From positions 206,706 to 270,705 of the forward strand of contig CAVXSF010000008.1 of assembly GCA_963764345.1 (NCBI GenBank): DNA of 64,000 nucleotides, in the 5' to 3' direction. The DNA is from an uncultured Bacteroidales bacterium. Its GTDB lineage: Bacteria > Bacteroidota > Bacteroidia > Bacteroidales > GCA-2748055. The notes under the pieces were generated by a model that was not told the DNA's origin, searched no databases, and saw only the letters and a list, made by a program, of their open reading frames with translations. The translations under genes and the position numbers were made by a program. This document shows positions 7,796-63,810 of this stretch, one piece after another. Every line of letters begins with the position of its first letter. Positions within the stretch are counted from its first letter, which is position 1.

Positions 7796-8767
7796 ATGAA
7801 GGTATATTTAATATTCATTTCATGGTTCTTTAGTGGATTCATTGCACTAAATGCGCAGCCTGTGCCAAACGTTGAGGAGAATATTCCATACCTGATGACA
7901 TTTGGCAAACAGGCTGAGACGAGCTGGGGTGATGATGATTTCTCTCAGACTTTCTTTTTCCTGCTGCCAAAAGATTACAGCCAGCCTGTTTTTATCTGGG
8001 TCTATGACCCTGATGTCGGAGGTGAAGTGGATGAGATCGCCGGCGAATGGAATACCCGCGTGAATTATTCCATCTATGGAGGCAAGGGATGCTGGTCCAA
8101 CCCCGACGCACAGGGAACCGATCCTGTGGGTGAATATCGCAGCGGGACCCTGCTGGCAACAAAAACCTTTGGCGAAGATCCCCGTTATGACCAGAACTGG
8201 TACGTTTTCGGCCCTTTCAACCCATCGGAAGGGGAATTCGTTGAAAAATATGATGGCAACGTGCTGAAGATTATCTGCGAAGGCGTTTCTGGCGACGACG
8301 GAAATCTGTACCGTTATTTTATGAGCACCTCTTCCAAAGAGAGGATACCTGTTGAAGGAGGCAATGCCCTTTCATTCGAATATTCATTCCGGATGTATAA
8401 CGTGCCTGAGGAAGTATCCCACATTTACCCTTATGTCGACAACCGCACGGTGACCGTTAAATTGTATGATTTTGACTGGGACAACGATGGTTTTATCCGC
8501 GTTGTATCTGTCGCGAGGAAAGGCCAGACCTGTCCGGTTTCGGGTGAAGATAAATGGGCCGAAGGTGAATTTAAAATTTTTGAAGAAGAAAAGAATACCT
8601 CCCTGGACATACAATTCATAAAGAAAAAAACACCTCCTATTGTAAAAAACAATAACGTGGTTGTGTATGTGAAAAACCAGTACGGCGAAAATATTGAATT
8701 TTTTACCAGCCCGATTGGCGGCGTGCCCAAATACAAATATAGCATTGGGGTAAGAAAGAAGGAATAG
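7796..8767 (+). CDS. Hypothetical secreted protein
   Basis: 323-aa ORF with a signal peptide (FIALNAQ) and no family I recognise. It ends 22 nt before the sensor-PP2C gene on the same strand. Confidence 0.55.
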   Translation: MKVYLIFISWFFSGFIALNAQPVPNVEENIPYLMTFGKQAETSWGDDDFSQTFFFLLPKDYSQPVFIWVYDPDVGGEVDEIAGEWNTRVNYSIYGGKGCWSNPDAQGTDPVGEYRSGTLLATKTFGEDPRYDQNWYVFGPFNPSEGEFVEKYDGNVLKIICEGVSGDDGNLYRYFMSTSSKERIPVEGGNALSFEYSFRMYNVPEEVSHIYPYVDNRTVTVKLYDFDWDNDGFIRVVSVARKGQTCPVSGEDKWAEGEFKIFEEEKNTSLDIQFIKKKTPPIVKNNNVVVYVKNQYGENIEFFTSPIGGVPKYKYSIGVRKKE

Positions 8768-8789
8768 AAAAAGGTTAAACTATATCAGA

Positions 8790-11700
8790 TTGAAAATCCT
8801 CAAGACCCAGACAATAACATTTTTAATGATGATATTGCTGGGAGGGAATGTTCTCTCCCAGAATTTTCGTTTCCTGAACTTCGGGGTCGAACAGGGCTTG
8901 TGTGATAATTTTATTTATAACATCATTCAGGACCCGCATGGCTATCTCTGGCTTGGCACGGGTGAAGGCATATGCCGGTTTGACGGCTTCAGTTTTTCAC
9001 AGGCTTTCCAGGGTGATACGCTGCCCCAGACACCGGTCACTCAAAGTTACAGGGACAAACAGGGCAGGGTATGGTTCGGTTACGACGACGGTGAACTGGC
9101 TGTCCTGGAAGATTCAAAATTCAGACTTATCAATATCCCACAGGCAAATCGCGGAAGGATAAACGGTATCGCGGAGACATCCGACTCCAGTATCATCGTG
9201 GCTACGCAGAACAAAGGGATTATTCTGATCCATAACAAGGATGAAATGACCGTACTAAAAGACGGTCTTGAAGGACAACTCATTTCCTCTATTTGTATCA
9301 CCCCTTCCGATGATCTTCTGCTTGGAACATTCGATGGTCTTTTTATGTACCATTTTACTGCCGGTTATTCCGGACTGCAGCTTATCGGCAGGTTTGAAGA
9401 TATCCCTTATACCAGAATACAATCCATAGGAATGGATGCCTCTGCAGGGAATTACTGGATAGGTACGGAGGACCAGGGGCTCTTTAAACTTCGGACCGGG
9501 ACAAACGATATTAACTCTTATACGATTACCAAACCTGGTGAAGGCTTTGGATTGGAAAATTCCAATATCCAGGATGTTTTTGAGGATGCAAACGGCAATT
9601 TATGGGTTTGTACTATGGGTCAGGGGATCTATGAACTGATCAGCTCTAAAGGCGACGGGCATTTTGTACGGTTGCGTCATTTTGATAAAACGTCGGGATT
9701 GCCGGGTAATTTCGTCAGCTGCATTTTCCTGGATACGGAAGGTGATTTGTGGTTTGGAACCAGTGGTGAGGGATTGTTTGTCCTGAAAGATCAGTCATTT
9801 TCATTCTATAAATTCAATGCTGATGGTTTCGTCGATAATATCCAGTCACTGGCCCAGGTCGACAGCCTGTACTGGTTAGGCGGTGAAAATAAAATTATGA
9901 TCACCGACCTGGCATCGAAACACTTCAGATTCCTCGATTCAAAAAACGGGTTGCCCGATGACAGGTTTACCGCTATTTATCCGGCTTCCGACGGAACTGT
10001 ATGGATTGGTACGGCCAGAAGCGGAATCTACACCATCAGGAAGGATGGCAAAATGGCGAAGATTGTTTACCGGACAAAAAACTCGCTCGAAAATACAATC
10101 AATGCCATCACCGGCTGTAGTGATTCTATCTGGGTGGCGACCAATAATGGTGTCATCTGGTTTAACCAGAATACCGGAGAAAGGCATCAGTTCAGGACAA
10201 CTGAAGGGCTTCCGCACAATAAGATCAGGGATATTTTTATTGACAAGAGCCATACTGTTTGGATTGCAACCCGGAGTAACGGTCTTTTTAATCTTTCCAC
10301 GGGAGAAGAACTGGCTATTGAAGCAAATGCTGAGCTCGAATTTGTGAGCATTACACAGGACAGTTCAGGGAACCTCTGGGCAGGCACTTACGGTGACGGC
10401 ATATTCCAGTTTTCCCGCGACAGCCTTAACTATTATTCTTCCGCTGACGGATTACGCTCTAATTTTTGTTACAGCATAGCCACCGATGCCCGCGGAAATA
10501 TCTGGTCGGGCCACCGTTTGGGCATGAGTGAAATCAATACGAAGACGGGTAATGTTAGAGCTTTCAGCATTGAAGAAGGAATATCGGCAGATTGCAACTT
10601 TGGCGCTGTTATTAACAACTCAGAAAATGAGTTGATTTTTGGGACTTCCAGAGGATTGATCGTCTATGATCCTTTAAAAGATCACCAGGACACTATCGCA
10701 CCACAGCTCAATATCACCTCCCTGAAAATTTCGGATAAGGATTATGATTTCTCCAAACCCGTTTACCTTCCTTATAACCGATACAAGATCAGAATTGACT
10801 TTATTGGGATTGATTTTAAATCGCCCGAAAATGTGGTTTATCAATACAAACTTCAGGGGTATGACGACTGGTCGGAACCTTCTAAGGTGCCGGTAGCTAA
10901 TTACAGCAGGGTTGAAGATGGGGATTATACCTTCCTGCTCAAAGCATGTGACGAAAATGGGGTTTGTACCGAAACGCCACTGAAACTGCAGATCCATATT
11001 AAGATTCCGATCTGGAAGGCATGGTGGTTTATCCTGCTCGTTATCTTTATTGTAATTGTTACCGTCTTTGTCATCATCAAACTCAGGGAGAGAAAACAAA
11101 AACAGATACAGGATTATCTGCAGAGAGCTCTCGATGAGCGGACCCGGGAAGTGATGGAGCAGAAAGAAGAAATTGAAAATAAAAACAGGGATATCACCGA
11201 TAGTATTAACTATGCCCAGAGAATACAGGCCAGTATCCTGCCACCTATCAAACGTATTCAGGATACATTCTCGGGCAGTTTCGTCTATTACCAGCCCAGA
11301 GATATTGTGAGTGGTGACTTTTATTGGTACGACAGGCTTTGGGACGATAAGTTTGTGATTGTATGTGCCGACTCTACAGGCCATGGTGTCCCCGGCGCTT
11401 TCATGTCTATGATCGGGACAACCCTGATTAAAGATATTTGCTCGCGTCCCGATGTCCGGTCTCCTTCCCATATTCTCGAGACTCTGGATCAGGAAATTCA
11501 GAATGCTCTGAATCAAAACCTGGAAGCTGAAAAGTCAAATGACGGTATGGATATTATTGTTGCGGAAATTGACCTGAAAACGAACTACCTCCGCTTAGCT
11601 TCAGCTATGCGGCCAATCATCCTTTATATTAATAAGCAACAGGTGTATGTCAGAGGTTCAAGAAATTCCATTGGCGGGCATTTTGAAGAAGAGGCCGATG

Positions 11701-40348: not shown

Positions 40349-40421
<73 letters not shown>

Positions 40422-40427
40422 CAAGGA

Positions 40428-40491
40428 AGTTGTTTAATTGTTGAGTCGTTTAGTTGTTTAGTTGTTTAGTTGTTTAGGTGTTGGTTCAGGG
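40428..40491. repeat. 8-nt tandem array (AGTTGTTT-type, about 8 units)
   Basis: agttgttt aattgttg agtcgttt agttgttt agttgttt agttgttt aggtgttg, starting 7 nt after tRNA-Gly. Confidence 0.9.
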
Positions 40492-40952
40492 TTCATGCTT
40501 TGCTACGCAGGACTGGCAGGATTAATTAACCTTGAACTGATAATACATGATTGATCCAATCCCCCTTCCTGCAAGAATATAATTATTTGCAATTTCGATC
40601 ATCCGGTTCTTTCAAAAGCTGCACAACAATGATCAATCTTGAATTATCGGTAAGCAGTTCCTTCGATCCGGTACTTCCATGGTCTCAAACTAAAGGGCAG
40701 CCTGCTGTTCAAGATCCGACCAGGAATTTTACTCTGAATATATATTGTTGTTGAAGAAATAGACGAAACTGTTTTTTAGATTGAGTTATTACCGGAATCA
40801 GGAATTTCTTAGAATTTAAGTACAGATGATCTGAAAACAGAAGCCTAAAGACCTTTACGTATATTCGCCTCCTCTCGTAAATATGTAAAAAACAGACTTG
40901 AAGCCAGGAAAATATAACATTTGACTTTGTTACAACTTAAACCATTTCAAAT

Positions 40953-41008
40953 CAACGACTTAACAACTCAATGACTCAACAACTCAACAACTCAACGACT
41001 CAACAAAT
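40953..41008. repeat. 8-nt tandem array (CAACAACT-type, about 7 units), reverse complement of the 40428 array
   Basis: caacgact taacaact caatgact caacaact caacaact caacgact caacaaat, ending 7 nt before tRNA-Leu. Confidence 0.9.
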
Positions 41009-41014
41009 AAATCC

Positions 41015-41101
41015 GCCCGGATGGCGGAATAGGTAGACGCGCTGGACTTAAAATCCAGTGGCCAGAAATGGCCGTACCGGTTCGATTCCGGTTCCGGGTA
41101 C
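41015..41101 (+). tRNA. tRNA-Leu (anticodon TAA)
   Basis: Acceptor GCCCGGA/TCCGGGT (G1-U72 wobble), anticodon loop CTTAAAA, a long variable arm, T-arm ACCGGTTCGATTCCGGT. Confidence 0.9.
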
Positions 41102-43359: not shown

Positions 43360-43622
43360 AAGAATTCAAATTAATGGTTAAAAAGAAATTCAGAAATATA
43401 AATCTGATATTATTATTGTTCAAAAATAACTAAAATGTAATTAATAATGGCATAAAAATTACATAAAATAAGATAAAACTAAGTTTTACTTACGAATAGT
43501 TATTTAAAGGCTAAAATATTTACGATTTGTTACCCGGAGAAGGGTAAATGGTTGTTCCAGCTTATACTTTATAAGATGGTTTGATGGCAGGCCGGAGACG
43601 ATAGTTTCCGGCACTGCAATAT

Positions 43623-43678
43623 AGTTGTTTAGTTGTTTAGTTGTTTAGTTGTTTAGTTGTTTAGTTGTTTAGTTGTGT
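43623..43678. repeat. (AGTTGTTT)x7 tandem array
   Basis: Six perfect units plus one variant (agttgtgt), in the asnB / ECF-sigma divergent intergenic region. Confidence 0.95.
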
Positions 43679-43685
43679 CTGGATA

Positions 43686-43762
43686 ACCCCTAACTAATCC
43701 CTAACCCCTAACCCCTAATCCCTAATCCCTAACCCCTAATCACCAACCCCTAATCCCCTCCA
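43686..43762. repeat. 7-nt tandem array of CTAAYCC units (about 10), telomere-like CCCTAA-type; the minus strand is G-tract-rich
   Basis: cccctaa ctaatcc ctaaccc ctaaccc ctaatcc ctaatcc ctaaccc ctaatca ccaaccc ctaatcc. Confidence 0.9.
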
Positions 43763-50807: not shown

Positions 50808-51716
50808 TTAGCCTGCATTTTCTTTTTCGCTGATCTTCTCCAGAAAATGTACAAAATCAATGGCACTATCCATCATCCTGACATTATGTGGAAGGCCCTC
50901 TTTCACCGGGTCGGGATCGAAAGTGGAAAAAAGAATGATCTGATCGGGAAATTTCCTGGACAGTTTATCGAGGTATGTCCTGAAGTTGATCCCGGAAATA
51001 TTGGAGCTCAGGGATGTAATGAGATAATCGCAGGGTCTGATCTCCACCACTGCCTGAAGGTCATTGAAGGGGACAGACTGACCCAGGTAAATGACCATGT
51101 TGCCTCTTTTCTTGACCAGGTAATAGTAGAACAACAGGCCGATTTCATGAAGTTCCCCTTCTGGGAGAAAGAGAACAAAGCGTTTGCTGGGTTTATTGGG
51201 TTGGTCTTTATCCATGATGCCATCGATGGCAACAATGAGCTTCTGCCGCACCAGGTTGGAGATGAAATGTTCCTGGGCAGGGTTGATAGCCCCGGTTTGC
51301 CAAAGGATCCCGATTTTCTGAAAGAAAGGGTAAACGGTATACAGGATGGTTTTTTCAAATCCTTCCTGCATAATCTTTCTCGATAATATTTTTTCAAACT
51401 TCTTCTCATCCAGCTCTATCATGGCAATCACCAGGTTGTCAATCAGACTTTCTGTGTCTTGATTCTGCCTGGAAATCTCGTTAATTTTTGAGCTGATCTC
51501 TTCGTTACCCAGGTTGGCAATATGGCTTATTTTAAGCCCGTTACGGTTTAGCAGGGCTACGTTCAGTACTTTTTTCAGATCCAGATCATCGTAGAAACGG
51601 ATATTCGTATCCGTTCGTTTCGGTTCCAGAAGGTTATACCTCTTTTCCCAGATTCTAAGGGTATGAGCCTTGATGCCTGAGATTTTTTCAAGATCCTTGA
51701 TAGAATAGTTTGACAT
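50808..51716 (-). CDS. MerR-family regulator with a C-terminal cobalamin-binding domain (CarH/LitR-like)
   Basis: MerR HTH (YSIKDLEKISGIKAHTLRIWEKRY) and a B12-binding-type Rossmann region with LPEGELHEIGL (E/DxHxxG-like). Confidence 0.75.
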   Translation of the reverse strand: MSNYSIKDLEKISGIKAHTLRIWEKRYNLLEPKRTDTNIRFYDDLDLKKVLNVALLNRNGLKISHIANLGNEEISSKINEISRQNQDTESLIDNLVIAMIELDEKKFEKILSRKIMQEGFEKTILYTVYPFFQKIGILWQTGAINPAQEHFISNLVRQKLIVAIDGIMDKDQPNKPSKRFVLFLPEGELHEIGLLFYYYLVKKRGNMVIYLGQSVPFNDLQAVVEIRPCDYLITSLSSNISGINFRTYLDKLSRKFPDQIILFSTFDPDPVKEGLPHNVRMMDSAIDFVHFLEKISEKENAG

Positions 51717-51824
51717 ATCAAAATTCCCCGGTAAGATGCGGTGTTCAGGACATCGCGAATCCAAATTATTTTGCTAAACTAACAAATTTTGTTTAAAAAA
51801 GTTTATGGAAAGTTGAACATAATG

Positions 51825-51951
51825 GAGGGAGGGGTGAAGAAGTGAAGAAGGTAGAGGTTGGAGGTTGGAGGTTAGAGGTTAGAAAGTTAGAGAGTTAGAA
51901 AGTTAGAAAGTTAAGAGGTTAAGAAGTTAGGAAGGGAAGAGGGGGAAGGAG
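51825..51951. repeat. Stack of purine-rich 7-8-nt tandem blocks (GTGAAGA, GGTTGGA/GGTTAGA, GTTAGAAA, GTTAAGAR)
   Basis: ggtgaaga agtgaaga .. gttggag gttggag gttagag gttagaaa gttagaga gttagaaa gttagaaa gttaagag gttaagaa gttaggaa. Confidence 0.9.
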
Positions 51952-52410
51952 GAATGATCCTTTGAATTGTATCTTCCCAACCGAGGAGCGGTAGCCCATG
52001 CATAGCCACAGAAAGTTAGAAAGTTAGAAAGTTAGAAAGTTATGGAGTTAAGAGGTTAAGAAGTTAAGAAGGGAAGAGGGGGAAGGAGGAATGATCCTTG
52101 GAATTGTATCTCCCCGAACCGAGGAGCGGTAGCCCATGCATAGCCACAGAAGGTTAGAAAGTTAGAAAGTTAGAAAGTTATGGAGTTAAGAGGTTAAGAA
52201 GTTAAGAAGGGAAGAGGGGGAAGGAGGAATGATCCTTGGAATTGTGTCCCCCGAACCGCGGAGCGGTAGCCCATGCATAGCCACGGTTTTGCCCGTGGTG
52301 GTTATGACCGGTGAAAGACGCAGGGACGAAAAGGAAAAAGAATAATCCCTGGAATCGGTCCCCCGAACCGCAGAGCGGTAGCTCATGCATAGCCATGGTT
52401 TTGCCCGTGG
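51873..52410. repeat. About 138-bp tandem repeat, three full units plus one partial core copy, each with a microsatellite head and a conserved ~60-nt core
   Basis: The unit ends ..CATGCATAGCCACAG at 52011 and 52149 and ..CCACGG at 52286, giving periods of 138 and 137. Core: GGAATGATCCTTGGAATTGTrTC.CCCGAACCGnGGAGCGGTAGCCCATGCATAGCCAC. A partial core lies at 52337-52398. CCAYGG-TTTTGC-CCGTGG hairpins lie at 52281-52298 and 52393-52410. Confidence 0.9.
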
Positions 52411-52854
52411 TAGGAATGGTCGTCGTTCCAGGGAACCCGGGAAGGCTTCAATAATCGTATCCAGGTTTTTTGATTGTGGTGGGAATGCCCGGAATTTCTG
52501 CGTTATGATGGGGAGTTCATCATGATTCCAGACAATTCCGGAAACATCGCGAGGAAAATTTCATTCCTGTTCAGAAGCCCCGAAATGGTCCTATACAAAA
52601 AAGGACTGAAATATTCTTGCAGTGAAGGAAAAAAATATGTATTTCGGCTGGCATTCGTCAAAATGAGAATCATCATTTTGGGTGAGTTGATAACTTTTCG
52701 TCAAAAAGGTAAAAACAGGACGCTGAGATTTGGGGGGTTGAAAGGATTAAGGGGCGGTGTGTTGGAAGGTGGGGGAGGGATCCCATTTCAAGAAAAGACA
52801 TCCTTAGAATAACGAAGCCCCTTACTCTGCCCCGACGTTAATACTCCTTCTGAG

Positions 52855-52906
52855 TCCTTCGAAATTCAGATTCACCACAGTCCTTCGAAATTCAGTTTCA
52901 CCACAG
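52855..52906. repeat. 26-nt direct repeat x2 (TCCTTCGAAATTCAGwTTCACCACAG)
   Basis: Two adjacent copies that differ at one position. Confidence 0.85.
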
Positions 52907-52943
52907 ATCCCGATAACTATAAAGGACAGATTATCACAGATTA
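52899..52943. repeat. About 45-nt ACAGAT-rich element, copy 1
   Basis: CACCACAGATCCCGATAACTATAAAGGACAGATTATCACAGATTA. An inverted copy lies at 56731-56773. Confidence 0.75.
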
Positions 52944-53080
52944 CCGATTGTTGTCGGTACAGTATAAACAGATTGGGTATCCAGTTTTTTTATAGACGCG
53001 AAGCATCACGTCTCAACGATTTGGTTTTTCATTCAATATTCAGATCTCCTTTCTCCGTATCATTCGATATTCTATTTCAA

Positions 53081-53285
53081 TCTCTCAATCTCTCAATCCC
53101 TCAATCCCTCAATCCCTTAATCCCTCAATCCCTTAATCCCTTAATCCCTCAATCTCTCAATCCCTAACTCCCTAACTCCCTAACTCCCTAACTCCCTAAC
53201 TTTCACCTTTCACCTTTCACCTTTCACCTTTCACCTTTCGCCTTCACTCTAACCCCTAACCTCCTAATCCTAACCCCTAACCTCC
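53081..53285. repeat. Stack of four pyrimidine-rich tandem blocks: TCYCTYAA x10, TCCCTAAC x5, TTTCRCC x6, TAACCYC-type x5
   Basis: Read directly from the sequence. The array ends 8 nt before the stop codon of the methyltransferase gene. Its reverse complement gives GGTGAAA / GTTAGGGA / TTGAGGGA, the same motif families as 51825-51951. Confidence 0.95.
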
Positions 53286-53292
53286 TCCGCCC

Positions 53293-53944
53293 TCACTTCT
53301 TCCGTATCACCATCAGCCCGTCACGTAACGGAAGGATAAAATTTTCCACCGCCGCATCCCCTGTAACATACGCGTTGAAAGCTTCGATACCTAGCGTGGC
53401 TGAGTCTTTGTTTTTGCCGGGGTCGAGGACTTTTCCATACCAGAGAACATTATCGGCAATAATGATCCCACCCGGGGAAAGTCTGGGCAGCACAAGTTTA
53501 TAATATTCGACATATTCTTCTTTTTCGCCGTCGATGAAGACCAGGTCGAAGGTGTCGTTTAGGTTGGGGATGAGTTTCAGGGCATCACCGTTAATCCTTT
53601 TGATCTTTTCCGTCCAGTCCGGCCTTACGGAAAAAGCCATCGCTTACGTCGTTGAGTTCGTCATTGACTTCGAGGGTGATCAGTCGGCCATCGTCTTTCA
53701 GTCCGCGGGCCAGGCATATGGCCGAGTATCCGGTGAAGGTCCCGATTTCCAGGATACGTGAGGGCCGGACCAGCCTGCTGACAAGCTCCAGAAGTTTACC
53801 CTGTACCGGTCCAGACAGCATGGAGGGGAAGGCGGTATTCAGACCGGTGAATCTTCGGATTTCCGCCAACAGCGGATCTTCAGGAGACGAGTGTGCTTCG
53901 ATATACCGGTTCACAATATTTGTGGATTCAAATTGTTCCATCAT
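53293..53944 (-). pseudogene. Class I SAM-dependent O-methyltransferase (family 3, caffeoyl-CoA-OMT/YrrM-like), frame broken in a T4/A4 run at 53606-53609
   Basis: Track ORFs 53591..53944 (..ILEIGTFTGYSAICLARGL..FFRKAGLDGK) and 53293..53640 (IKRINGDALKLIP..DLVFIDGEKEEY..GGIIIADNVLW) join into one standard OMT if 1 nt is removed. Confidence 0.8.
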
Positions 53945-56790: not shown

Positions 56791-56970
56791 CCTGGCCGGC
56801 TCAATCACTCTTGCGCCAGATGCCTTGAAACTACCGGGGCTATCCCGGAAATGATGATGAAGGAATGGGAATACGGAGTAGGCGGGGCGAGGATGAAATG
56901 CCGGAGGATTTCATCTGCCGCTTGTAATCAGTATGCAACAGCCTCCGGCGATATCATCGATCATATGACT
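56791..56970 (+). pseudogene. Decayed fragment of a dienelactone-hydrolase paralogue
   Basis: CCCTGGCCGGCTCAATCACTCTTGCGCCAGATGCC...GGATGAAATGCCGGAGGATTTCATCTGCCGC aligns with 60004-60140 of the intact gene (CCCTGGCCGGCTTTATCAGTCTGGCCCCGGATGCC...GAATGAAATGCTGGAGGATTTCATCGCCGCC). The fragment has no intact reading frame. Confidence 0.65.
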
Positions 56971-57021: not shown

Positions 57022-59287
57022 CTAAAATTCATCGAACGAAATCATATTTTCGGGAACGCCGAGGCCTGCCAGCATTTTCGTCCCTGCCTCAATCAACGCA
57101 GGCGGGCCGCAAAGGTAATATTCAACCTCACCGGGATGTTTATGGTCCTTCAGGTATTTTTTCAGTAATACCTCGTGAATAAATCCTCTGTCACCATGCC
57201 AGTTGTCATGTTTGCCGGGTTCTGACAAGGCCGCATGAAAGGTAAAATTATCGTTGGTTTCAGCCAGATTTTTAAAATAGTCATCGTAGAAAAGATCATC
57301 CAATGTTCGGGCTCCGTACCAGAAACTCACCTTCCGTTTCGTTTTCAATGATTCGAACAGGTACGACACGTGTGACCGGAGGGGCGCCATTCCAGCTCCT
57401 CCGCCTAAATAAACCATCTCCCTGTCCGAATCTTTGATGTAAAAATCACCGTAGGGTCCTTTCAGCATTACTTCATCACCCGGTTTCAGGTTAAACACAT
57501 ACGAGGTCCCGATTCCCGCAGTGATGTTCCTGTCACCGGGCGGCAGGGAAATCCGCACATTGAACCGGAGCAGCCGGTCCTTTTCGGGATTATTCGCCAT
57601 GGAGAAGTTACGTTTTGTATGGATCGTATTCCTGGAAAAGCAGTCGAATAATCCCAGGTCCTTCCAGGTTTTATCATACGGATTATCAATCAGGATCTGG
57701 TCAAAAGTTATGTCAAACGGAGGGATCATCAATTGAATATATTCACCCGGCCTAAATGTGAAGTTCTTCTCTTCTAATGTTTCCAGGACAAGTTCTTTAA
57801 TAAAGGCTGCCACATTATGATTGCTCACCACCCTGAACCTTATTTCCCTATCCGTATCCGGGATGGAGGCTTTCTTTTTGCCGGAAATGTGCAGGTACAC
57901 CTTATCGTCATCCAGACTTACGTTAAACGTACGAATGGCAACACATGCCGGTATCCGTTTGGGAGACCCGTCTTTAATACTGAACCGGCCATTGTGTTTG
58001 GGGCACTCGATCAGGTCCCCGATAACCACTCCTTCAGCCAGATGGGCATTACTGTGGGAGCAAATACCGTCTGTGGCGTAAAATTTGTTTTCATCCGTTC
58101 TGTATATGGCATATGTTCTCTGGTTGAAATCAAAGCGGACCACATCTCCTTTTGGAAGGTCACCAATACGGCAAACTTCAATCCGGCTGTCCACCACCCT
58201 TGAAGGATCTCCCGTAATGATCTCCTTCTGTTCCATCTGGTGACCGGCGCCTTCAGGCAGTTTCCGTTCCACAAAATAGTATGGATCTTTCCGTTGCTTC
58301 AGGAGGGTGGGGATCATCTCCCGGTATACTTCAAGGATCCCGATATACGGCGTGGGGCAATCGTTCTTCACCAATTCATGCAAACGCGGGAGGGCATGAT
58401 AGGGTACAAGAGGGAACATATGATGTTCAACGTGGTAATTCATATTCCAGTACAAATACCGGTGCAGCCGGTTCATGTAAACGGTCCGGCTGTTCAGCCG
58501 GTGGTCAAGCACATTCTCCTGTAAACCGGCGTGTTGGGTTAACCCGTATAACTGTAACAACCATGAACCAAAGAGGGTCGGAATTCCAACATACATCAAA
58601 GGCAGGATGCTGCCGATAATAAACCGACAGACCGATCACACATAAAAATATGAGCATATAGATCCGTGCTTCGAGGATGATCTTCTTATAATCGGATTCA
58701 GGAACATAGGTTGCCACCTCAGGGTCTATTTTCCCTGCAATATGCCGGAATAACCTCTTTGCCTCGGGAATGGTACCACCCAGGCCAAAAAATCCACGTA
58801 TCACCTTATTCAAATTCGGAGGCCGCGGTACAGAAATCTCTGGATCACGACCCCTGATAATGGTATCACTGTGATGACGGGCATGGCTCCACCGCCAGGC
58901 AGTTGACTGCCTGAAAACCATAAATGAAGCGATCTTATATAAAAGATTATTCATCCAGTCCGTCTTGAAGGCGGTACCGTGACCCGCCTCATGCCACCTT
59001 GAATCGGAGGTGGAAGCATACAGTGTACTATAAATGATATAAGGAAGAATAAACCACCAGGTACCCCATAACAGGAAGACGAGGAAGCCTGAACCTATGA
59101 TAAGACCGAACCAGATGATCGTATCCCTGAGAGCAGGACCGTCTTTCCTGACCAGCAGCTCGCGCATTTTTTCCCTGGGAACAGGCGACTGATACCATTC
59201 TGCATCAGCCAGCCCTGCTTTTATCGCCTTTTTTGTTTCAACGCCAATCAGGCTGTAATCCCTGACCATTTCCTGAGTTTCTTCCAT
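57022..59287 (-). pseudogene. Fusion of a membrane di-iron fatty-acid-desaturase-family domain, a Rieske [2Fe-2S] domain and an NqrF/FNR-like FAD-NAD(P)H reductase; frame broken near 58615
   Basis: His boxes HEAGH and HARHH lie in ORF 58505..59287 and HVEHH in ORF 57022..58599. The Rieske motif is CSHSNAH..x16..CPKHNGRF. The reductase motifs are RNFSMANNP and GGGAGMAPLRSH. The two ORFs join at ..GLSVYY / GSILPLMYVGIPTLFG with a 1-nt shift. Confidence 0.8.
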
Positions 59288-59630
59288 ATAATTCCTGCGG
59301 ATAAAGGGAAATTAGAAATCATTTAATGTGGTACGACGGATCCATGTGCCAATATAAGAACCAGACAGCCGTGATTTTGTTTACGACCGGGGGATACGGG
59401 ACTTCATCCATTCTATCGCACTCCAGTGGATTCGCAATCATCCAAGTCTGAACATGTCGCCCGATTCCCTGCAGGCATCAATCTTCTCATCACAAAATAG
59501 CATCCTTAAATATTATCAGGACCCGATAAACGGTGTGCAGCCTTCCCCTTGCCCTGTTATATTTCCTGCAGCCTTTTGCCATAAGAGTTTGTTGAACTAT
59601 TCCTGATTCCGTTTTGTTCTTACCTTACAA

Positions 59631-60527
59631 ATGATTTCTATGAACACAATCAATAAGGAAAACATTCCTCAGGAAGTATTTGATCTGTATGACGCCTATG
59701 CTCATAACAAGATCGACAGAAGAAAATTCATCGACAGGCTCTCCACCTATGCAGTAGGAGGGATCACCGTAGGGGCTTTGATGAGTTTTATGATGCCACG
59801 TTACCAGGAAACAGTTCAGGTTAGTCAGGATGATCCAGGATTGACTACAGAATACGTTACCTATGAATCTCCCAAAGGCGGAGGCTCAATTCGCGGTCAG
59901 CTGTCGCGGCCAAAGAATGCAGGCGGCAGATTGCCGGGCATTGTCGTTGTTCATGAAAACAGGGGACTGAATCCGTATATCGCGGATGTAGGGCGCAGGC
60001 TTGCCCTGGCCGGCTTTATCAGTCTGGCCCCGGATGCCCTGACACCACTGGGGGGCTATCCAGGAAATGATGATGATGGAAGGGAATTACAGAGTAAGCG
60101 GGACAGGAATGAAATGCTGGAGGATTTCATCGCCGCCTTTGAATATCTGAAATCCAGTTCAGAATGTACAGGAAAGGTTGGTGTTGTCGGCTTTTGCTTC
60201 GGCGGCTGGATCACAAATATGATGGCCGTGAAAGTGCCTGACCTGGCTGCAGCGGTTGCATTTTATGGTGTACAGCCCTCTCCAGAATTGGTTCCTGAGA
60301 TTCATGCTCCCTTATTGTTACACTATGCAGCTCTCGACAATCGTGTGAATGAGGGATGGCCGGCCTATGAAGCAGCATTGAAAAAATATCACAAGGAGTA
60401 TACAGCCTATATATATCCGGATGTCAATCACGGCTTCCATAATGACTCGACACCACGGTATGATAAAGCTGCCGCTGAGCTTGCCTGGAAAAGGACCCTG
60501 GATTTCTTTCTGGAGAAATTGAAATAG
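59631..60527 (+). CDS. Dienelactone hydrolase family protein with a Tat-type signal
   Basis: Twin-arginine motif (DRRKFIDRLSTYAVGG), a VVVHENRGL region, nucleophile motif GFCFGG, and C-terminal HGFHN. Confidence 0.85.
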   Translation: MISMNTINKENIPQEVFDLYDAYAHNKIDRRKFIDRLSTYAVGGITVGALMSFMMPRYQETVQVSQDDPGLTTEYVTYESPKGGGSIRGQLSRPKNAGGRLPGIVVVHENRGLNPYIADVGRRLALAGFISLAPDALTPLGGYPGNDDDGRELQSKRDRNEMLEDFIAAFEYLKSSSECTGKVGVVGFCFGGWITNMMAVKVPDLAAAVAFYGVQPSPELVPEIHAPLLLHYAALDNRVNEGWPAYEAALKKYHKEYTAYIYPDVNHGFHNDSTPRYDKAAAELAWKRTLDFFLEKLK

Positions 60528-61494: not shown

Positions 61495-62125
61495 TTCATA
61501 AAATATTTGGTATACACACAATTTACGAATAAAATCGTGGGACAGGAAACTAAAACCTGGTCCAGTGCATTAATTATAAGGTCATTAGAAGTGTCGTTTA
61601 CGCTTAAGGGAGGTTTGCAGGCCCATCTCAGTGAAAATAAAAAAATTACTTCTAAATAAAGATTTGAGGTAAACAGGCTTGGTACAAAGGATGTGTGTTG
61701 CTCTGAAAATTGAAGTAAGCACCTCATTCCAGAGACTGTGGTATCGAAATTCACCGGGAATTCCTGTATAGGATTTTTGAACCGGGATCAGGCGGAAATT
61801 ACAATCATAGTGAGTGTTTGGTTCCAGTCTGAACTTAGCTTTATTCTATGGAACATGACAGTATGCTCTGATAGGGGAAGGATGTGCAGTTAAGCCGGTA
61901 TATGCATCCAGGAAAAAATACGCCACTTCCGGATTTAAATTTGGGTTTGTAGAGGTTACAATTACAGAGCTGTATAATTAAAAATCACTGGTGTCCGGTA
62001 AAATCGAAAACCGATAATTTACTTCATATAATTGCCTGATAATCTGAAGTATATAATTAAATATCAAAATCAAGGCCCCTTTTTTCAAAGATTATGGAAT
62101 TTCATAATGTCAGATGTCAGTAAAG

Positions 62126-62174
62126 AAATATTGAATATCGAATATTGAATATCGAATATTGAATATCGAATGTC
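62126..62174. repeat. (AATATYG)x7 tandem array
   Basis: aatattg aatatcg aatattg aatatcg aatattg aatatcg aatgtcg. Confidence 0.9.
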
Positions 62175-62289
62175 GAAGTTGTAAGACCTCGCTTCATAAC
62201 TCCATAAATTTTCCAAAGAGAGTTATGAGGTTATGAAGATGTTAATTCGGGGGCACTCTTCCTAACCCCTAACTACTAACGAAACCTTA

Positions 62290-62521
62290 CTTGCACACCC
62301 TTCGGGGTGCCGGGGAACCTTTCCTGTCAAATATTCTATCGCTCTCTGACCCTGATGGGGCCTTTTTGGACTATCCGTTGATTGATAATTAGCCATTTCG
62401 TGACAACGATCAGCATTTTGATCACAAAATTTCGCAATCACGATGAACAAAGCCTCCCATAGGAGGCAGCGAGCGATAGAACGATGCACGACATCAAACA
62501 CGGCGCCCCGTAGGGTGTGCA
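62290..62521. other. Candidate structured region: nested long-range stems (22 bp outer, 15 bp inner) with internal hairpins; strand unknown
   Basis: TTGCACACCCTTCGGGGTGCCG (62290-62311) pairs with CGGCGCCCCGTAGGGTGTGCAA (62500-62521). TTCTATCGCTCTCTG (62333-62347) pairs with CAGCGAGCGATAGAA (62466-62480). A GCCTCC-CATA-GGAGGC hairpin lies at 62451-62466. Confidence 0.3.
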
Positions 62522-62724
62522 ACACCTATTCGGTTTACCGGACACCAATGATTAAAATAGTATATTTTTTGGATATTAGTATGACAAATACCAAAGGATC
62601 TTACACTTATCCCTGATTACCGGTTACAGAATCTGTAAGACCTTTTTCCGGGAAATTTTTCACACACTCCCCGGATTAAAATTAACCAAAGTCTATAAGA
62701 TGAAATATCAAAAGCAGCCTGTAT

Positions 62725-63810
62725 TTATTGACCCTGAACCATTATTTTTACGGCTATACCCGGCTTAATTTCTTCACTGCCGCGGGTTAGCAATGTATCA
62801 CCTTCTTGCATGTCCCCGAATATTTCGACGCTGTCCTTCATTGATATCCCCTCCTTTACATCTACCCACTCAACTGTGCCAAGGTTTGCCCTTACAATGA
62901 ATTGTCTCTCAAGAGAGGTCACTACCGAACTAAAAGGAACACCAAAGGAGCTGCCTTCCCGCATGAGTATGATGTGGGCCATGGCGTACATCCCCGGCTT
63001 GAGTTCATTGTTCCCGTTGTCATACTCATATTCCCATAATTCGGTGCGGGTATCGGGATCAATGCTTTCGGATTTTCTAGCGGGATTGGCATAGAATGTT
63101 TTATTTGCCACTGCATCCGTAGTGAAGGCTAATACTTTCTCTTCCGGATGGCTTTGAACGTAGGCTTCCGGGACATGAATCCGCAACCGCAGGATATCCG
63201 GTCTTTCCAATACGAAGAGTATACTGTGATCTTTTGATCCCACGAGGTCGCCAACATCGATGAACCGTTTGGTGATAATGCAGTTAAAGGGAGCCTGGAT
63301 GGTAAGATAAGCCTGCAAATGCCGGTAAGAAAGGGTTTTTGACCTTGCTGAAACGAAACGACGCGGAACTGTCTGCGGAGACCAGGTTCCCGGCAGTGAT
63401 CAAATCACTTTCTGCGATAACCCCCTGCTCCCGGGATGCCTTGCTCAACCGGTTGAACTTATCAAGGCTTGCTTCATAATGAGCCTTTGCTTCGTCATAC
63501 TCTGCTTTAGCTTTGCACTCCGGGCCACAATCTCCGGGGCATCCAGCACCGCGAGGATCTGGCCCTTCCTGACTTTATCACCAATATCAACCAAATATTT
63601 CTGAACGTAACCCTCTACCTTTGCATTGATCTCTGCCCGTTCAAAAGGCAATAATTCTGCAGGCAGATCCAATGTTTTGCTGACCTTTTTCTTCGTAAGG
63701 ACAAAGGCATCTTTAGCATCTTCCGCTTTGTGGTTTTTTGTCCTTTCAGGTGCGCAGGACAGAAGAATGAACGCAAAGAAAACCGAAAGAAGCAGTGCTG
63801 TCTTTTGCAT
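62725..63810 (-). pseudogene. RND/efflux periplasmic adaptor (membrane fusion protein), two frame breaks (about 63520 and about 63355)
   Basis: Lipoprotein N-terminus (ILLSCAP) and lipoyl-like VGDKVRKGQILAVLDAPE. The middle coiled coil is readable only in a second frame (AKAEYDEAKAHYEASLDKFNRL). The C-terminal half is in a third frame (LTIQAPFNCIITKRFIDVGDLVG...). Confidence 0.75.

Follow-up and report, generated by a model that had tools for sequence, protein, structure and literature searches.

In a 64,000-nucleotide (nt) stretch of DNA from an uncultured Bacteroidales bacterium (contig CAVXSF010000008.1; hereafter the window, whose numbering is used throughout), the longest gene-free gap is a 1,576-nt spacer (51717-53292) flanked by two minus-strand genes, an O-methyltransferase gene upstream and the gene of a MerR-family regulator with a B12-binding domain (MerR/B12 regulator) downstream. 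Each end of this spacer carries a stack of tandem arrays with units of 7-8 nt; we call these stacks the left and right arms, and the arms with the sequence between them the island. A sequence-only reading of the window had described the island as a non-coding stretch enclosed by mirror-image stacks of short repeats. Tandem Repeats Finder (TRF) placed the arrays at both spacer ends as that reading had them, the left arm starting 109 nt upstream of the MerR ATG (51716) and the right arm reaching to 8 nt from the methyltransferase stop codon. The arms are indeed opposite in strand polarity, with a plus-strand GC skew of +1.0 in the left arm and -0.9 to -1.0 in the right arm, and they have motif families in common (GTTAG-, GTGAA-, and RTTRAG-).

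Arrays of this kind are neither confined to the island nor expected by chance. Across the window there are 9 array blocks of period 5-11, 695 bp in total, while 30 dinucleotide-preserving shuffles of the window yielded no block in 29 cases and 1 block in the remaining one. All 695 array bp are intergenic, lying outside open reading frames (ORFs) and tRNA genes; intergenic sequence makes up 20% of the window. The TRF periods are 7 and 8 with 4-15 copies, so unit lengths are not multiples of three. Five spacers in the 64 kilobases (kb) bear arrays, and array density is 11-15 bp per kb in two related genomes (L001 and L002, below).

We compared the spacer with that of relatives retrieved by two proteins. 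Among species-representative genomes, the M16 peptidase encoded upstream of the methyltransferase retrieved L001 (97% protein identity) and L002 (82%), both uncultured Bacteroidales metagenome-assembled genomes; the next peptidase relatives were at most 59% identical and Marinilabiliales-like. The MerR protein retrieved L201 (flanks with 99.7% DNA identity), L202 (96%), L203 (80%), and L204 (78%). The window, L201, L202, and L001 have the same island architecture and differ in array copy number, and within arrays the differences consist of entire units added or lost while the flanks stay the same (Table 1). At a second array locus, at 43.6 kb, AACAACTA likewise occurs in 7, 9, 5, and 4 copies in the window, L201, L202, and L001, respectively, between identical flanks. 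L002 has a 179-nt spacer without arrays, which shows that the island is dispensable. Comparison with related genomes, as the sequence-only reading had proposed, thus found the island in L201, L202, and L001, no arrays in L002, and a different filling in L203 and L204; the L204 arrays are unlike those of the window in motif and period and alike in mirror polarity. The spacer is thus a hot spot that relatives have refilled independently.

Table 1. Positions of the island and its parts, flanking genes and other arrays in the window, and size and content of the corresponding spacer in relatives
Feature	Position or length	Strand	Description
Left arm	51825-51951	+	stacked C-free 7-8-nt arrays (GTGAAGAA, GAGGTTG/GAGGTTA, GTTAGAAA, GTTAAGAR), then GGGAAGAGGGGGAAGGAGG tail
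Left arm, GTGAAGAA x2.1	51834-51850	+	TRF
Left arm, GAGGTTG x3.9	51854-51880	+	TRF
Left arm, GTTAGAAA x4.5	51878-51913	+	TRF
Left arm, AAGTTAAG-type units	ending 51942	+	TRF
Right arm	53077-53292	+	stacked nearly G-free arrays, then CCTCCTCCGCCC to methyltransferase stop codon
Right arm, 15.1 octamers	53077-53197	+	TRF; TCAATCYC/TTAATCCC x10 (53077-53160), CTAACTCC x5 (to 53199)
Right arm, CTTTCAC x6.4	53200-53244	+	TRF
Right arm, CTAACCC (CTAACCY) x4.9	53249-53282	+	TRF
Two canonical G-quadruplex motifs	53098-53148, 53162-53196	-	regular expression G3+N1-7, at least 4 tracts; methyltransferase sense strand
Array units as candidate G-quadruplex formers			(GGGATTGA)4-6, (GTTAGGGA)4
Higher-order tandem repeat, 137/138 nt, three copies	51839-52251		TRF period 137, score 734; octamer block plus unique segment per copy
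61-nt core (CCCCGAACCGNGGAGCGGTAGCCCATGCATAGCCAC...) x4	51971-52418		starts 51971, 52109, 52246, 52358
Unique non-coding centre	52420-52850		no Rfam match; single-copy in sequences compared
26-nt direct repeat, two copies	52853-52904
Small hairpin GAGACGUGAUGCUUCGCGUCU	52994-53013	-	minimum free energy -12.3 kcal/mol, z -3.5; A-run after it on minus strand
Conserved MerR upstream region	51717-51824	-	near-palindrome CTAACAAATTTTGTTT at 51779-51794; outside arrays
MerR-family regulator with B12-binding domain	50808-51716	-	302 aa from ATG at 51716; Pfam MerR_1, MerR, B12-binding_2
Class I O-methyltransferase	53293-53944	-	downstream of M16 peptidase; stop codon 53293-53295
Second mirrored pair	40428-41006		AGTTGTTT x6.9 from 6 nt after tRNA-Gly; CAACTCAA x7.4 to 8 nt before tRNA-Leu; arms 465 nt apart
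Third mirrored pair, between divergent genes	43622-43757		TAGTTGTT x6.9, then CTAATCC x9.1
277-nt array-bearing segment	62002-62278		AATATYG x7, GTTATGAG units, 26-nt core, CTAAC units
Window spacer	1,576 nt		61-nt core x4
L201 spacer	at least 1,528 nt		contig end inside right arm; about 7 GGAGTTAG units (window 5); one TAACTTTC more; 61-nt core x4
L202 spacer	1,625 nt		three 112-nt units, two 137-nt units; 61-nt core x4
L001 spacer	1,274 nt		AAGGCGA x9.4 where window has GTGAAAG x6; TAACTTTC x13.5; 61-nt core x1
L002 spacer	179 nt		no arrays
L203 spacer	1,647 nt (8354-10000)		unrelated 181-aa ORF on opposite strand; degenerate repeats, purine-rich and pyrimidine-rich, in mirror arrangement
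L204 spacer	484 nt		ATTTGGTG x3 after stop codon; AAACCACTTC x23 before MerR promoter

The interior of the island is built from larger repeats that incorporate the arrays. The left arm is the first copy of the 137/138-nt higher-order repeat, and the octamers are thereby carried deeper into the island; copies 2 and 3 are 97% identical, and L001, L201, and L202 have one, about 3, and about 2 copies where the window has three. A CCACGG/CCGTGG hairpin is present in the last two copies of the 61-nt core. Between the window and L001, identity is 81% in the unique centre and 88% at four-fold degenerate positions in the flanking genes, and the indels of the centre measure 1, 1, 2, and 28 nt, which are not multiples of three; divergence beyond that of four-fold sites, together with frame-breaking indels, indicates that the island is under no detectable constraint. 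The earlier statement that the stretch between the arms lacks a convincing ORF held up, as the ORFs of the island, among them a 112-aa ORF at 52474-52812, have no Pfam match and are not conserved in the orthologous islands. A coding island was rejected also because neither strand nor frame is conserved in L001, where the longest ORF of the island lies on the opposite strand.

Searches for a structured RNA were similarly negative. At the gathering score, Rfam identified two tRNAs only in the whole window, and at E ≤ 10 it returned three chance-level matches over the island and no real family. The 61-nt core folds no better than shuffles (z -0.05 to -1.1), and the same is true of the 112-nt unit. 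We also considered the small hairpin at 52994-53013, which is duplicated inside a 96-nt repeat in L001, as a terminator and rejected it because the T-run is on the wrong side; it is not terminator-like in either direction, and a terminator scan of the spacer found no intrinsic terminator. The sole part of the spacer common to L001, L002, L202, L203, and L204 is the region directly upstream of the MerR gene, which is 89% identical to that of L001 and in which about 60 nt around AAACAAAATTTGTTAG are shared across all relatives. Judging from the sequence, this region is probably a promoter/operator.

To describe the orientation of such arrays more broadly, we surveyed about 200 loci, comprising loci fetched by protein, which are unbiased for arrays, and loci from a metagenome scan for GTTAGRRA x3, which are chosen on one motif (120 loci, with composition analyzed in 80, L081-L160, of 21-69% GC). 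At the protein-fetched loci, the G-skewed strand runs away from the nearer gene in 30 of 41 skewed arrays, and G comes first in 6 of the 7 spacers with both skews. In L081-L160, the median distance of the fetched arrays is 17 nt to the 5′ neighbour and 109 nt to the neighbour on the other side, with 32 arrays nearer the former and 13 nearer the latter (p = 0.007); a C-skewed partner occurs in the same spacer on the right in 16 cases and on the left in 1. When all loci were pooled, 75 of 105 skewed arrays outside the search-pattern selection were concordant (p = 1 × 10−5), with similar behaviour beside stop codons (43/58) and start codons (32/47). Among pooled spacers with both skews, the net order is G-skewed then C-skewed in 38 and the reverse in 0.

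Both arms of the island obey this rule, as do two further window spacers and arrays that flank tRNA genes, and the polarity holds whichever way the flanking genes point. When each array obeys it, arrays at the two ends of a spacer yield the order G-skewed then C-skewed whichever strand is read, and because this order is identical on both strands it is no artefact of locus orientation. The order is therefore the norm for this repeat class and not a peculiarity of the island. Randomly oriented arrays, which the sequence-only reading had said would undo its finding, are not what these counts describe, and the finding therefore holds.

The proposal that the two arms form a giant inverted repeat specific to this locus was not supported. 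The arms are complementary at only 72-83% over 40-49 nt, and their block order is not significantly colinear (65/500 and 29/500 unit-order shuffles equal it). The left arm is nearer (89-97%) to arrays at an unrelated L002 locus than to its own right arm. The arms thus draw on a lineage-wide vocabulary (GTTAG-, GTGAA-, GTTATGAG, TAGTTGTT, and GGGATT-). Pairing between the arms is predicted at -124 to -131 kcal/mol (z about -5 versus shuffled arms). Mononucleotide-shuffled arms still reach -94 to -103 kcal/mol, so composition supplies most of the pairing energy, and we found no strand asymmetry of arm pairing through G-U wobble (-124 versus -131 kcal/mol). The window contains 5 canonical G-quadruplex (G4) motifs, 3 of them in arrays, and the left arm lacks G3 tracts at the spacing that G4 requires.

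Taken together, we think it likely that the island is an overgrown and highly variable spacer made of slippage-driven, essentially unconstrained intergenic arrays, with their orientation set by a polar constraint; in this best explanation the island is no gene, RNA, or discrete machine. The arrays fall into the class known as long simple sequence repeats (LSSR), which also takes in cyanobacterial heptamer arrays, the G-rich heptamers of Xanthomonas and Nostoc, and heptamer assemblages of some Bacteroidetes. The strain comparison shows that arrays gain and lose whole 7-8-nt units, probably through replication slippage, and that blocks of 112-138 nt, each an array plus unique sequence, are duplicated, probably through unequal recombination. 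The constraint would keep the strand that runs 5′ to 3′ away from the nearest gene C-free and G-skewed. Our preferred guess is that this polarity stems from a constraint linked to transcription, under which RNA leaving a gene would be G-rich and partly G4-prone and RNA entering a gene would be G-free. As a side effect, paired arms may uncouple the MerR/B12 promoter from read-through out of the peptidase-methyltransferase genes. The sequence-only reading had held that a mirrored arrangement is not what simple slippage produces. That does not apply to the copy-number changes, all of which are whole units, and it does apply to the polarity, which slippage leaves unexplained. Our first choice is a neutral product of slippage whose orientation is filtered in a way linked to transcription; a selected insulator is its main rival.

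Several observations count against this explanation. Partner arrays share 5-mers (as reverse complement) at 0.52, versus 0.18 across loci, which independent slippage does not predict and which makes some inverted duplication or concerted evolution between partner arms likely. In addition, the array-bearing 277-nt segment at 62.0-62.3 kb is missing from L001, the 97% relative, which has about 13 nt at that position, and three tandem 119-nt units at L002 4625-5095 match the 26-nt core of the segment (GAAGATGTTAATTCGGGGGCACTCTT) with 98% identity over 45 nt. This L002 locus is non-syntenic, its flanking genes having no homologue in the window, and the genomes are about 80% identical in protein; the segment may be a mobile or copied array cassette, a hint that some array cassettes move. 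The survey itself used crude longest-ORF gene maps, from which spurious island ORFs were removed and to which tRNA genes were added by hand, and arrays of one spacer are not independent, so per-spacer counts are the safer ones. As the assemblies are probably long-read consensus sequences, single-unit differences in copy number may include consensus errors; the larger differences and the agreement in architecture of four assemblies cannot be errors.

Other candidate causes of the polarity were considered. A G-free strand cannot contain ATG, GTG, or TTG, and avoidance of start codons or of purine runs resembling ribosome-binding sites on the gene-inward strand was one candidate; it was not supported in a weak test among 25 low-skew arrays (7 versus 12), and arrays beside tRNA genes keep to the rule as well. 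We also considered avoidance of promoter-like TTG elements on the gene-inward strand. Rho loading on a C-rich inward transcript is unlikely to be general, since cyanobacteria, which are not known to have Rho, show the same polarity.

The insulator reading, which is compatible with an origin by slippage, holds that selection maintains the mirrored arrays as a barrier to transcription in both directions, made of a G-rich RNA or non-template strand (a G4 or R-loop) and a complementary pyrimidine arm, acting as a long hairpin with a U-rich tail or as a C-rich Rho loading site, so that read-through of one gene would stop short of the next. We treat it as possible, if doubtful. It would account for a polarity that disregards the orientation of flanking genes and for the predicted pairing of the arms, and it fits the placement of the island between co-oriented genes, where a terminator and a promoter are needed and no canonical intrinsic terminator was detected, and of G4 motifs on the sense strand straight after the methyltransferase stop codon; G4 and stem-loops have been discussed for such repeats (Rehm et al. 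2015, PMC4692102). Yet L002 copes without arrays, the left arm is not built for G4, the pairing energy is mostly compositional, and the Rho version meets the cyanobacterial objection above. A different departure from our explanation, which we judge unlikely, is that polarity and motif sharing reflect an active directional DNA process and not passive slippage plus selection. Such a process may add repeats to 3′ ends at both sides of a break or excision site, or may consist of self-copying array cassettes, at which the 277-nt indel and its L002 counterpart hint. On that view, the island would be a sizeable site of healing or colonisation, and the two arms would be inverted copies in the true sense.

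We find it quite improbable that the island is a non-autonomous mobile element resembling MITEs (miniature inverted-repeat transposable elements), or the scar of one, with terminal inverted repeats expanded into arrays. Its presence in some relatives and absence from L002 would suit such an element, as would the 10-nt GAAGAAGTGA found inverted near both outer ends (the right copy overlapping the methyltransferase stop codon), the variable presence of the separate 277-nt segment and the recurrence of its core, and the precedent of a minisatellite-bearing MITE in Porphyromonas gingivalis, as outlined in PMC4596501. However, the 10-nt match lies in low-complexity purine sequence, 13 nt off one end, and there is no target-site duplication. 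Neither the 64-kb window nor roughly 1.9 Mb of loci contained the centre or the 61-nt core anywhere but at the orthologous locus, exact-pattern scans with both cores (including the 61-nt core) gave no matches in viral contigs, and the centre had no blastn match in plasmid and phage collections. Other relatives fill the spacer with unrelated and again mirrored sequence, which suggests that the mirroring belongs to the site and not to an insert. A contingency (phase-variation) switch that tunes the MerR/B12 regulator through copy number is very improbable in our view: copy number does differ between near-identical strains, and the left arm is directly upstream of the conserved MerR promoter region, but the variable arrays lie outside that 108-nt region and past the methyltransferase stop codon, so unit changes leave promoter-internal spacing unaltered. 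Similar arrays also flank tRNA and housekeeping genes, and no link of such repeats to gene classes was seen by Rehm et al. (PMC4692102). It is harder still to credit a structured non-coding RNA or small protein with arrays as its flanks; the four copies of the 61-nt core with their small hairpin and the 112-aa ORF might suggest one, against the absence of Rfam and Pfam matches, cores that fold like shuffles, an L001 ORF on the other strand, and a centre that outpaces synonymous sites and has frame-breaking indels. We give least credence of all to a collapse, expansion, or chimera of the long-read metagenome assembly. The L201 contig does end in the right arm, and a one-base frameshift in the window methyltransferase gene is a possible consensus error; against this, four assemblies from different samples have the same architecture, identical unique flanks, and shared blocks, and arrays of these families are present at several further loci and in numerous metagenomes.

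The arrays resemble several known repeat classes, and the statement that no equivalent had been described for Bacteroidota proved wrong. Intergenic heptamer assemblages (TAACTGA repeats) were reported in five Bacteroidetes and in Beggiatoaceae by MacGregor (2015, PMC4679880); those of Bacteroidetes are missing in close relatives with the same gene neighbourhood, and contigs often end in the repeats. As there, the window has several arrays per spacer, relatives with a shorter, repeat-free spacer, repeats that are forward before starts and reverse after a stop, and TAAC(T) in its pyrimidine-strand units (TAACTTTC and TAACTCCC). Unlike there, it has no TAACTGA, its arrays run longer and face each other in mirror image from the two ends of a 1.6-kb spacer, and the left arm is upstream of the promoter region, whereas the Beggiatoaceae repeats are mostly a few nt from the start codon. 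The polarity rule was likewise described before, for the G-rich heptamers GGGAATC and GGGGA(C/T)T of Xanthomonas and Nostoc (Rehm et al. 2015, PMC4692102), whose G-rich strand lies beside the 5′ neighbouring ORF in either orientation, sense after a stop and antisense before a start (section 13 of that paper). The window arrays share with these heptamers their tandem units of about 7 nt in intergenic regions, the rule itself, the possibility of inverted pairs, predicted G4 potential in the right arm, and variation in length and sequence at the same locus among close relatives, and the units GGGATTGA, GGGATTAA, and GGATTAG resemble GGGGATT. They differ in phylum, in having mostly 8-nt units with 5-15 units per block (versus a reported preference for four), in that many units are C-free but not G-rich and cannot form G4 (GTTAGAAA and AGTTGTTT), and in that blocks are stacked and embedded in 112-138-nt higher-order repeats.

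Cyanobacterial heptamer arrays are also known as STRR, with the consensus STRR1-3 in heterocystous cyanobacteria. The window arrays differ from STRR in the strict sense in their units (GTTAGAAA, GTGAAAG, and GGGATTGA), their Bacteroidales host, and their lineage-specific vocabulary. The class to which we assign the arrays is LSSR, with units of 5-11 nt, for which polymerase slippage was proposed (Mrazek et al. 2007, as cited in PMC4679880); insofar as it is characterized there, LSSR share with the window arrays a dominance of heptamers, units that are not multiples of three, an intergenic location, and a sporadic phylogenetic distribution. The window arrays are tandem 5-11-nt units above chance, non-coding, and changed by whole units between strains, as this class is defined; its further feature of many loci per genome could be gauged within 64 kb, where five spacers bear arrays. 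Repetitive extragenic palindromes and bacterial interspersed mosaic elements (REP/BIME) and the P. gingivalis MITE, as outlined in PMC4596501, are likewise intergenic and repetitive, with inverted symmetry, hairpin potential, and presence or absence among relatives; in contrast to REP/BIME and MITEs, the island has no defined 20-40-nt palindromic unit and no terminal inverted repeats with target-site duplication. A CRISPR array was rejected, as there are no 24-48-nt repeats with spacers and successive units adjoin head to tail at a 7-8-nt period. The polarity rule and Bacteroidetes heptamer assemblages absent in close relatives are thus already known. New in this case are the lineage of the host, the vocabulary of octamers, how large and how stacked the arrays are, the higher-order repeats, and the demonstration of G-then-C pairing in each informative spacer across a broad span of GC content.

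The island is probably of little consequence to the cell, as close relatives live without it. It is, in turn, an unusually large and clear case of a type of bacterial DNA that decades of cataloguing have left unexplained. Several near-identical assemblies that differ only in unit numbers could make mutation rates and mechanisms measurable from long reads, and sister lineages that fill the same spacer independently, with other motifs and the same polarity, allow a property of the site to be separated from a property of the sequence. A rule as clean as this, with G before C in all 38 informative spacers at 21-69% GC, should have a simple mechanistic cause. There is also a practical effect, in that arrays break metagenome assemblies and spawn spurious ORF calls. 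For example, the 9.7-kb L201 contig, from a near-identical strain, ends in the right-arm array (1-27). In L204 (14035-14371), AAGGTGA x46.6 forms a 333-nt array that has a higher-order period of 43 nt and starts at an OmpA/PD40 gene's stop codon, and its source annotates a 150-aa "gene" over it; C-skewed decamers follow, in the usual polarity.

Turning to the flanking genes, homologues of the MerR/B12 regulator are 293-310 aa long, and some sources name them "light-induced MerR regulator." The O-methyltransferase, intact at 216 aa in L001 and L202, is split in the window into two overlapping ORFs, on which Pfam Methyltransf_3 positions 2-97 and 91-204 fall separately. Alignment with L001 attributes this to one extra A near 53613, in CTGG(A)CGGAAAAG; the split reflects either a recent pseudogene or a consensus error.

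Elsewhere in the window, the second mirrored pair occupies the 592-nt spacer between tRNA-Gly(GCC) and tRNA-Leu(TAA) (region 40349-41101), and its arms contain a perfect 10-nt complement (TTGAGTCGTT / AACGACTCAA). A 93-nt direct repeat, 81% identical, has copies at 56836-56928 and 60052-60144, 3.2 kb apart, one in the spacer after a 432-aa gene and the other inside the ORF at 59631-60527. Two further gene-free gaps exceed 1 kb (58597-59630, which has no tandem arrays, and 61495-62809); over both, Rfam gave no match at the gathering score, and over 61.4-62.9 kb none at E ≤ 1.

In the sister lineages, the 181-aa ORF in the L203 spacer has a signal-peptide-like start and no Pfam match on record, and it is bracketed by inverted copies, about 37 nt long, of a GC-rich palindromic element (CCGTTCAACGCCACCCGTAGTGGCGGGTCGCC...); tblastn found no remnant of it in the window island. 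In L204 (3755-6007), a gene for a 152-aa Y1_Tnp protein (a tyrosine transposase like those of IS200 and the REP-associated tyrosine transposases, RAYT) adjoins about 1.5 kb of GGCGAATATCGATAG 15-mers organised as 85-100-nt higher-order repeats, which may be a REP/RAYT-type system. Finally, GTTAGRRA octamer arrays at the metagenome loci (L081-L200) occur on contigs of 21% to 69% GC and in many cases extend over the final codons or the stop codon of the ORF on their 5′ side; one array, at L090 544-917, has 47 copies.

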